Shown one piece after another: positions 14,529 through 14,605 of a DNA stretch of 64,000 bases. Made by a program: the position numbers and the translations under genes. This DNA is from a virus. Under the pieces are notes generated by a model, which did no database searches, had not been told where the DNA came from, and saw nothing but the letters and a program-made list of their open reading frames with translations. Position 1 is the first letter of the stretch; every line of letters begins with the position of its first letter. The stretch lies in the IMG/VR virus record IMGVR_UViG_3300045988_084999. One strand, 5' to 3'.

Positions 14529-14605
14529 TGGCAGCGGAGGTGGGATTCGAACCCACTCCCGAGGTTTTAGAGACCCCTGCGCTAAACCATTACGCTACTC
14601 CGCAA
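14529..14605 (-). tRNA. Amber suppressor tRNA, anticodon CUA (reads UAG); tRNA-Gln-derived
   Basis: TGCGGAGTAGCGTAATGGTTTAGCGCAGGGGTCTCTAAAACCTCGGGAGTGGGTTCGAATCCCACCTCCGCTGCCA. Anticodon stem GGGGT/ACCTC and loop CTCTAAA. The 3' end CCGCTGCCA (G73) is identical to that of tRNA-Gln(UUG) at 22709-22782. Confidence 0.7.

Follow-up and report, generated by a model that had tools for sequence, protein, structure and literature searches.

A predicted amber-suppressor tRNA with a conserved open acceptor end in a gut phage that appears to read TAG as glutamine

It is already known that gut phages may encode tRNAs with a CUA anticodon and read TAG as glutamine in their late genes. In phages that use genetic code 15, including crAss-like, Lak and Agate phages, the reassignment of TAG to Gln chiefly concerns structural, late and lysis genes, the phage-encoded CUA tRNA is presumed to be charged by a host synthetase, and the component that changes the code is itself encoded in sequence compatible with the standard code (Borges et al., 10.1101/2021.08.26.457843; Peters et al., 2022, PMC9523058). 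A further group of gut phages with TAG reassigned to Gln, of which Phass-1 is the type and which is related to Enterococcus phage EF1, has been described more recently (Babkin et al., 2023, PMC10607447). Here, we discuss a tRNA gene in a stretch of 64,000 nucleotides of viral DNA, IMG/VR record IMGVR_UViG_3300045988_084999, hereafter referred to as the window. It very probably represents a functional phage amber-suppressor tRNA(CUA) of a code-15 gut phage of ~140 kb, in which TAG encodes Gln in structural and late genes. The phage shares the traits listed above with the code-15 phages in general but is of another lineage, related to myovirus-like phages of Enterococcus and Geobacillus; the clade to which it belongs has been described.

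When the 64-kb window was searched with ARAGORN, a 76-nt tRNA with the anticodon CTA at position 35 was found at 14529-14604 on the minus strand. An earlier note, made from the letters alone, had placed the locus at 14529-14605; the 14529 end holds, whereas the other end is at 14604, and the gene is on the minus strand. The label "tRNA-Pyl" given by ARAGORN is merely that tool's name for a CUA anticodon. The Rfam tRNA model matches the gene with 59.8 bits (E 2e-10), spanning 14532-14604. The 5' half of the RNA reads UGCGGAG UA GCGU AAUGGUUUA GCGC A GGGGU CUCUAAA ACCUC, and the 3' half continues with GGGA GUGGG UUCGAAU CCCAC CUCCGCU G CCA. Its parts are the following:

14529-14604, minus strand: suppressor tRNA with CUA anticodon, canonical cloverleaf and encoded CCA (ARAGORN, Rfam, minimum-free-energy fold, covariation)
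14568-14570, minus strand: anticodon CUA (TAG on the plus strand) in the loop CUCUAAA (sequence; ARAGORN)
14604, minus strand: position 1, a U, unpaired and facing U72 (sequence, minimum-free-energy fold)
14532-14533, minus strand: U72 (14533) and the discriminator base G73 (14532) (sequence)

The minimum-free-energy fold is a cloverleaf in which positions 1 and 72 are left unpaired. Hence, the description in the earlier note of a CUCUAAA loop on proper stems, with U1 opposite U72 and a discriminator G73, proved to be right: the CUA assignment holds in a canonical cloverleaf in both ARAGORN and the fold, and the mismatch can be read from the sequence and is conserved among the members of the family discussed below. 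The z-score of the fold energy (-0.88) is by itself not significant, and support for the fold comes instead from the covariance-model score and from covariation. In an alignment of eight orthologues, pairing is seen in 100% of the cells for 20 of the 21 stem pairs, eight pairs show compensatory (double) changes, and the covariation observed was reached in none of 500 shuffles. As many independent assemblies contain the gene, with compensatory changes in its stems, it is more than a chance occurrence. Judged by these alignments, the suppressor is a real tRNA gene that appears to be under structural selection. It is the sole CUA tRNA among the 31 tRNAs that ARAGORN finds in the array of the window, all on the minus strand.

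Among GenBank phages, the best match is tRNA-Sup-CTA no. 1 of Phass-1 (OQ749652.1, 62536-62610), with 84% identity over the full length and 17 of 21 stem pairs in common. Both tRNAs have the loop CUCUAAA, G73, an encoded CCA and two pyrimidines at 1:72, and Phass-1, too, is a phage of ~136 kb with a large tRNA array and late genes in which TAG is read as Gln. At the DNA level, megablast detects no similarity between the two phages, and the acceptor stems differ, being UGGGGAG/CUCCCCC in Phass-1 (U1.C72, G3:C70) and UGCGGAG/CUCCGCU in the window (U1.U72, C3:G70). Together with their relatives, they form a lineage (sup-A) that is recognized by an invariant D arm, GUAGCGUAAnGG..AGCGC, the loop CUCUAAA, G73 and the pyrimidine-pyrimidine 1:72, all of which are present in the window tRNA. 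Another difference is that the short suppressor of Phass-1 adjoins a second CUA tRNA, whose variable arm is long and which is absent from the window. TRNAs of this second kind in Phass-1-type phages measure 91-94 nt and have a paired 1:72 (A:U or U:A) and G73; examples are found at 20079-20169 in L030 (Phass-1), 6364-6457 in L027 and 8521-8614 in L039. They adjoin the short suppressor in Phass-1-type contigs and lie ~430 nt away from it in L027/L031 and L039.

By all sequence comparisons that were informative, TAG is a glutamine codon in this phage. When the large terminase was aligned with those of two standard-code phages, Enterococcus phage H1 and Geobacillus virus E3, 11 of the 27 aligned TAG cells contained Q, against a background of 4.1% (binomial p = 3.6e-9), and the BLOSUM totals at these cells amounted to 56 for Q, 29 for K and 28 for E. 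At the conserved TAG columns in FYQR, GGKEQAA and KSQ(I/V)Y, and at two more, Q is present in both H1 and E3. For a test at the codon level, all alignment columns were considered in which TAG occurs in at least one of five recoded terminases. Besides TAG, these columns contained CAA (45), CAG (15) and GAA (10), with no other codon occurring more than six times, and the near-identical contigs L043 and L044 were found to have TAG versus CAG at three terminase columns. A second protein, encoded at 59494-60663, similarly has Q at conserved columns, including that in KFTAxQ. The earlier note had also proposed that TAG is read as Gln, arguing from similarity to a tRNA-Gln. That proposal is borne out by the alternation with CAA and CAG in relatives and by Q in standard-code homologues; the assignment rests on codon-level and protein-level evidence and not on resemblance between tRNAs. 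Other comparisons were rejected. The 120 best database homologues of the terminase have Q at 13 of 14 TAG columns, but this is circular, since they were translated with TAG as Q (no match under code 11). In FolD, compared with solved structures, the TAG sites fall in variable columns and are uninformative on the amino acid, and the portal protein, with 19% identity to the Geobacillus portal, is too divergent for use.

The window, which has a G+C content of 37%, is part of a gut phage of ~140-146 kb with genetic code 15; of the genome of ~146 kb, 64 kb are in view, and ~40 of roughly 80 open reading frames (ORFs) were scanned for domains. It encodes a large terminase, a portal protein, a sigma-like factor and tail-fibre-like proteins (domain and PHROG scans), a tmRNA (Rfam) and the array of 31 tRNAs. 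The terminase region is distantly similar to those of Enterococcus phages H1 and EF1 and Geobacillus virus E3, and a megablast search with 25 kb of the window against GenBank phages gave no match. Close relatives are present on many metagenomic contigs of 100-150 kb, including IMG/VR contigs. Reading TAG as sense recovers long ORFs at 16-20 kb and 57-64 kb. In total, 66 in-frame TAGs are found in 11 structural or late genes, where they make up 44% of the Gln-type codons. The 36 minus-strand genes in the blocks 997-15703 and 33474-56632 (7204 codons) contain no in-frame TAG and end with TAA (32) or TGA (4), never with TAG, and none of the 47 genes called with TAG as sense terminates with this codon. 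The suppressor gene itself is situated within a TAG-free block. The genes with in-frame TAGs are the following:

16056-20257, minus strand: four tail-fibre-like genes with 2, 5, 2 and 5 in-frame TAGs; one matches PHROG families of tail assembly and of unknown function
57210-58314, minus strand: FolD-like gene with 4 TAGs (PDB matches to the FolD family) and a small ORF with 6 TAGs
58388-59487 (region including the promoter), plus strand: sigma-factor-like gene with 11 TAGs (PHROG 5767)
59494-60663, plus strand: gene of phrog_3314 with 8 TAGs
60667-62412, plus strand: large terminase with 14 TAGs, at columns that correspond to Gln
within 58417-64000, plus strand: small ORF with 3 TAGs and portal gene with at least 6 TAGs, which runs off the window

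The tail-fibre-like genes at 16056-20257 are clients of the suppressor. For annotation, the consequence is that under code 11 the genes for the terminase, the portal, the sigma-like factor and the tail fibres shatter into fragments.

One property of the suppressor that appears to be new is its open 1:72 position. Pattern scans of viral, genome and metagenome collections yielded a family of 26 distinct sequences and four more with an unusual T-loop, 30 in all; the collections overlap, and many of the contigs are from one large dataset (3300045988). Members were also found in Russian, Mexican and other human-gut samples, in a metagenome-assembled genome (MAG) from sheep colon and in further metagenomes of unstated origin. 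In all 30 members, positions 1 and 72 are each U or C and hence do not pair, and position 73 is G. The combinations at 1:72 among the 26 are U.U (15), U.C (8) and C.U (3), and the position is unpaired in all eight aligned orthologues. The acceptor stems vary widely within the family (GCGGAG, GGGGUG, CCGGCG, GAGGUG...), with compensatory changes that keep the pairing at 2:71 (G:C, C:G), 3:70 (C:G, G:C, A:U) and 6:67 (A:U, U:A, U.G, C:G). Since all 30 members have the mismatch even though both of its bases change identity, selection acts on the non-pairing and not on one particular contact. In 19 other distinct phage CUA tRNAs, the 1:72 pair is G:C (8), U:A (8), U.G (2) or A:U (1) and never a mismatch, and the only other non-pair at this position in the window is that of the initiator-like tRNA-Met at 29828-29902 (C1.A72). 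Taken together, non-pairing at 1:72 is a selected trait that is specific to this family. A term search of the recoding-phage preprints, which was limited and is not proof of novelty, found no mention of a conserved 1:72 mismatch, nor, as far as such a search shows, does the Phass-1 paper (PMC10607447) speak of a mismatch. Apparently, the conserved open 1:72 of this suppressor lineage has not been described before.

A mismatch at 1:72 followed by G2:C71, C3:G70, G4:C69 and G5:C68 is also found in bacterial initiator tRNAs; the family variant in L006 starts with CGCGGAG. The initiator tRNA of E. coli begins with CGCGGGG. However, the initiator tRNA has A11:U24, three G:C pairs in the lower anticodon stem (29-31:39-41) and the anticodon CAU, whereas the suppressor has C11:G24 and two of these three pairs (the other being U31:A39), and its CUA anticodon would serve at internal sense codons. 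Of the defining traits of the initiator, only the 1:72 mismatch is common to both, and the suppressor, by its sequence, does not qualify as an initiator tRNA.

Expression of the suppressor may be driven by a predicted promoter upstream of the gene:

15042-15070, minus strand: predicted sigma-70-type promoter, TTGACA-17-TATAAT with an upstream TG (12/12 consensus pattern match)

It lies on the strand of the tRNA, about 440 nt upstream of it, with the start of the -35 hexamer at a distance of 466 nt and an ORF of 108 aa (14694-15020) in between. Only four such 12/12 matches occur in the 64-kb window, this one included, and the match is kept 455-472 nt upstream of the tRNA in seven of seven window-type loci, again including the window. 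A candidate promoter right upstream of the gene, TTGCCA..TATATT with a spacing of 19 nt, was rejected, as it overlaps position 1 of the tRNA and is incompatible with a correct 5' end; the conserved match further upstream is the better candidate. Lying in a TAG-free block downstream of a perfect host-type promoter, the tRNA would be made as infection starts. It would then be charged with Gln by a host enzyme, most likely glutaminyl-tRNA synthetase (GlnRS), and the resulting Gln-tRNA(CUA) would compete with host release factor 1 at UAG, so that the sigma-like factor, the terminase, the portal, the tail fibres and FolD could be translated. The sigma-like gene is directly preceded by a near-consensus promoter match (TTGACA-17-TATTAT with TG; 58388-58416, plus strand). 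Thus, host RNA polymerase could transcribe this gene early, whilst its translation would wait for the suppressor. With its 11 TAGs, the sigma-like protein should appear only after the suppressor has accumulated and might in this way act as a timer, in agreement with a published model in which late and lytic functions are delayed by recoding.

GlnRS opens the 1:72 pair of its tRNA on binding. In the amber suppressors of E. coli, supE tRNA-Gln(CUA), su+7 tRNA-Trp(CUA) and tRNA-fMet(CUA), the 1:72 pair is weak or absent, and the Gln and Trp tRNAs have G73. These suppressors resemble the window tRNA in having a CUA anticodon with U35, but they are laboratory mutants of cellular tRNAs, whereas the window tRNA belongs to a naturally maintained phage gene family. 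The pairs 1-72 and 3-70 and the bases G73, G10, U35 and G36 are identity elements for Gln, and this amino acid is accepted both by tRNAfMet(CUA), in which 1:72 is mismatched, and by tRNATrp(CUA) (PMC9976931). Of the set recognized by E. coli GlnRS, the suppressor has G2:C71, G10, G73, U35 and A37. In place of U1-A72, G3:C70, G36 and U38, it has U1.U72, C3:G70, A36 and A38; the Phass-1 orthologue does have G3:C70. By its sequence, then, the suppressor should work like a Gln acceptor without being a canonical tRNA-Gln. Most likely, the mismatch helps the GlnRS of the host to charge the tRNA. With U35, A37, G10, G2:C71 and G73 kept, the open 1:72 would present an acceptor end that is already melted, as GlnRS needs, and this could offset the loss of G36. 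The suggestion in the earlier note that the mismatch modulates handling by GlnRS or EF-Tu is plausible. Going further, we tentatively propose, at somewhat less than even chances, that the invariant pyrimidine-pyrimidine 1:72 and G73 constitute an evolved "pre-melted acceptor end" for efficient charging by the glutamine machinery of the host despite A36. It may also filter the charged species that reach the ribosome, and a YqeY-like protein (see below) may assist. GlnRS was found in 10 of 28 Firmicutes surveyed (PMC3927822). The two-step route via glutamyl-tRNA synthetase (GluRS) and GatCAB is less likely, because GluRS of Bacillus subtilis relies on a modified U34 (PMC9976931) and the suppressor has C34; according to the literature, GatCAB mainly rejects G1-C72, which would leave this route accessible to the tRNA.

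Several points weigh against the proposal of a Gln-inserting suppressor that is expressed early and charged by host GlnRS. The promoter is a consensus pattern match only, and expression is deduced from it. With C3:G70 instead of G:C and A38 instead of U38, the tRNA departs from the E. coli Gln identity set at both positions. Given what is known of initiator tRNAs, the 1:72 mismatch is expected to weaken binding to EF-Tu and may have a cost in decoding efficiency. Further suppressors, a release factor or a synthetase could be encoded beyond the 64 kb in view. In a host without GlnRS, charging would depend on a non-discriminating GluRS and GatCAB, a route that prefers a modified U34 and U1-A72. 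As to the host, Clostridia or Eubacterium is no more than a suggestion, which comes from the binning of contig L056 (see below) and from the Phass-1 study (PMC10607447).

The YqeY-like protein (149 aa; 997-1446, minus strand) matches Pfam PF09424 with 36.3 bits (cut-off 27) and shows a weak full-length match (E 0.019) to B. subtilis YqeY (PDB 1ng6). YqeY is paralogous both to the GatB tail and to the tRNA-Gln affinity domain that is fused to GlnRS in Deinococcus, where this domain acts only in cis (PMC1865053). The gene and the window-type suppressor occur together on viral contigs, and five further viral contigs have the gene as well; in some of these five, ORF coverage increases if TAG is taken as a sense codon. 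In Phass-1, neither tblastn nor a Pfam analysis of the syntenic ORF detected the gene, which, therefore, is not a universal partner of the suppressor. It is suggestive that such a protein is encoded by a phage that reads TAG as Gln, but a role as an accessory is speculative.

As to the origin of the suppressor, the earlier note had regarded it as derived from the phage's own tRNA-Gln; in this reading, it would be a recent duplicate of tRNA-Gln(UUG) with a mutated anticodon. The ordinary Gln tRNAs of the window serve as comparators and not as parents:

22631-22705, minus strand: tRNA-Gln(CUG) with A1:U72 and G73
22709-22782, minus strand: tRNA-Gln(UUG) with A1:U72 and G73

The suppressor and tRNA-Gln(UUG) do share acceptor pairs 2-6, U72, G73 and CCA, so that, as the note had pointed out, the 3' ends (UCCGCUG-CCA) are identical, over 10 nt; position 66 differs (C versus A). 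The similarity of the D arms, also mentioned there, is loose, with an AAUGGU-style loop and two of the four stem pairs in common; the same loop style occurs in the Pro and Trp tRNAs. The GCGGA segment of the acceptor stem remains as the sole Gln-like trait in the window. Overall, identity to window tRNAs is 69% for Trp, 67% for Met, 67% for Gln(UUG) and 53% for Gln(CUG), with a mean over all pairs of 57% (sd 5%). Identical stem pairs, of 21, number 13 for Ser(UGA), 13 for Leu(UAA), 11 for Gln(UUG), five of them in the acceptor stem, and 10 for Trp, on a background of 8.0 (sd 2.2). Hence, Gln(UUG) does not rise clearly above other isoacceptors; Trp, Met, Ser and Leu give values in the same range. 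Moreover, the T arm and the anticodon stem differ, the phage Gln tRNAs start with A1 and not with U1, and acceptor stems vary widely in the family. The Phass-1 orthologue is far closer and is itself unlike the Gln tRNAs of Phass-1, which begin with ACCGGAU.. and AGCCUCG... A cellular parent was sought in bacterial and archaeal genomes via the invariant D arm; among the matches listed were Arg, Ala, Pro and Lys tRNAs but no Gln. With a closer orthologue in Phass-1 and no Gln among these D-arm matches, derivation from the phage's own tRNA-Gln is unsupported and a recent duplication improbable; the suppressor belongs to an old, separately evolving lineage common to Phass-1-like phages. The ordinary Gln tRNAs of the window phage and of Phass-1 (L040, 21385-21458 and 32226-32301) all have A1:U72 and not the U1:A72 that is described as typical of bacteria. 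tRNA-Gln(UUG) of Deinococcus radiodurans is another case of A1:U72 (PMC1865053).

Other explanations concern the function of the mismatch and of the tRNA as a whole. The open 1:72 might serve another end than access for GlnRS, such as an affinity for EF-Tu that is tuned to deliver the Gln-charged form alone, protection from peptidyl-tRNA hydrolase when drop-off has occurred at UAG, prevention of mischarging by LysRS or TrpRS, or escape from a tRNA-directed host defence. Its invariance in 30 of 30 members while both bases vary would suit such roles as well, and GatCAB and GluRS2 also use this pair. However, they are compatible with the GlnRS explanation, for which the closest experimental precedents exist, and we consider such another end rather doubtful, though by no means far-fetched. 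That the suppressor inserts a residue other than Gln, i.e., Trp, Glu (as an unamidated intermediate), Lys or Tyr, is highly improbable. It is true that its anticodon arm, GGUCUC[U/C]AAAACC, is almost identical to the one in the phage tRNA-Trp, which is also the top global match, that GAA is the third commonest alternative codon in the TAG columns, and that TAT alternates with TAG in one column. Against this, the alternatives CAA and CAG together count 60, compared with 10 for GAA, six for TAT and none for TGG, the columns in FYQR, GGKEQAA and KSQ(I/V)Y are Q in standard-code phages, the BLOSUM total of Q is twice that of K or E, and even tRNATrp(CUA) of E. coli receives Gln (PMC9976931). Still less probable is a non-functional relic, with TAG being read through by means of another tRNA in the genome or the host. 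Phass-1 carries three CUA tRNAs, and 64 kb of the genome are visible; yet, the structure of the window tRNA is intact and covarying, it is the sole CUA tRNA among 31 in the array, and it is conserved together with the upstream consensus promoter in all close relatives. The chance that the suppressor is a pyrrolysine tRNA is negligible, as the CUA anticodon and nothing more speaks for it. tRNAPyl has an atypical core, with a short D loop and neither G18G19 nor the T-loop consensus, and a 6-bp anticodon stem. The suppressor has G18G19, the T-loop UUCGAAU, a 5-bp anticodon stem and a 4-nt variable region, no pyl genes or domains were found among the ~40 scanned window proteins, and TAG aligns with Gln. 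A functional Gln-inserting suppressor, thus, is the reading that we prefer.

Some further observations concern the phage and its host. Two contigs that contain the suppressor family and a dense tRNA array, and that also came up in the D-arm scan of bacterial and archaeal genomes, have been filed as bacterial MAGs, i.e., L056 (CALCFD010000051.1, 147,780 bp) as an uncultured Eubacterium sp. and L085 (JAFVUY010000119.1, 158,178 bp) as a Bacilli bacterium from sheep colon. Their length is that of phage genomes, and they are probably phage genomes that were binned with a possible host, and the hint at the host that this binning provides is weak. Within the window, the minus strand encodes a PRPP-synthetase-like and a nicotinamidase-like gene (NAD salvage, as in Phass-1) and a protein with a microbial-type poly(ADP-ribose) glycohydrolase domain (1443-2846 and 55865-56632). 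The region 8853-13226 (minus strand) encodes an 813-aa protein that has shoulder and repeat domains of the Major Vault Protein and also matches SPFH/Band-7; adjoining this vault-like gene is one for a 506-aa DUF2828/DUF7788 protein, a vault-like pairing that is unusual in a phage. At 3043-7812 (minus strand), genes are found for an RNA ligase with one in-frame TAG, an RNase T-type exonuclease, a metallophosphoesterase and an RlaP-family nucleotidyltransferase (just under the Pfam cut-off). This cluster looks like one for RNA repair and may protect the tRNA pool of the phage or the host.

In the tRNA array around the suppressor (13470-32996, minus strand), ~24 of the 31 tRNAs are directly preceded by ..(A/T)AU, e.g., uauau followed by the tRNA, and CCA is encoded in 30 of the 31. 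Seven near-consensus promoter-like sites, TTGAAA-17-TATAAT, are dispersed in the array at 23-33 kb, and several tRNAs, i.e., Val, two Arg, Glu-UUC and Leu-CAA, have a G1.U72 wobble. A 117-nt tRNA at 22345-22461 (minus strand; Rfam 49.8 bits) was missed by ARAGORN at default settings; when introns were allowed, the program modelled a tRNA in which an insert of 42 nt interrupts the anticodon arm, the anticodon stem is poor and GCCG takes the place of CCA at the 3' end. This element could be an intron-containing or a degenerate tRNA; leaving it aside, Asp and Tyr tRNAs are absent from the 64-kb window. The array also contains a full-length tmRNA at 24829-25149 (minus strand; Rfam 76.8 bits, model positions 1-374), where the tmRNA mode of ARAGORN detected nothing, and an ORF at 25117-26106 (minus strand) with four in-frame TAGs and, by eye, a GIY-YIG-like motif (YIYKI..IYIG.T), which probably encodes a homing endonuclease.

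The new element in these findings is small, i.e., that a whole suppressor lineage keeps 1:72 unpaired while the surrounding stem covaries. It bears, however, on the open question of how a phage without a synthetase of its own gets a host synthetase to charge a tRNA for a stop codon. If the pre-melted acceptor end is indeed what this lineage has evolved, it would represent a design rule, found in nature, by which a host synthetase can be hijacked and the genetic code altered.

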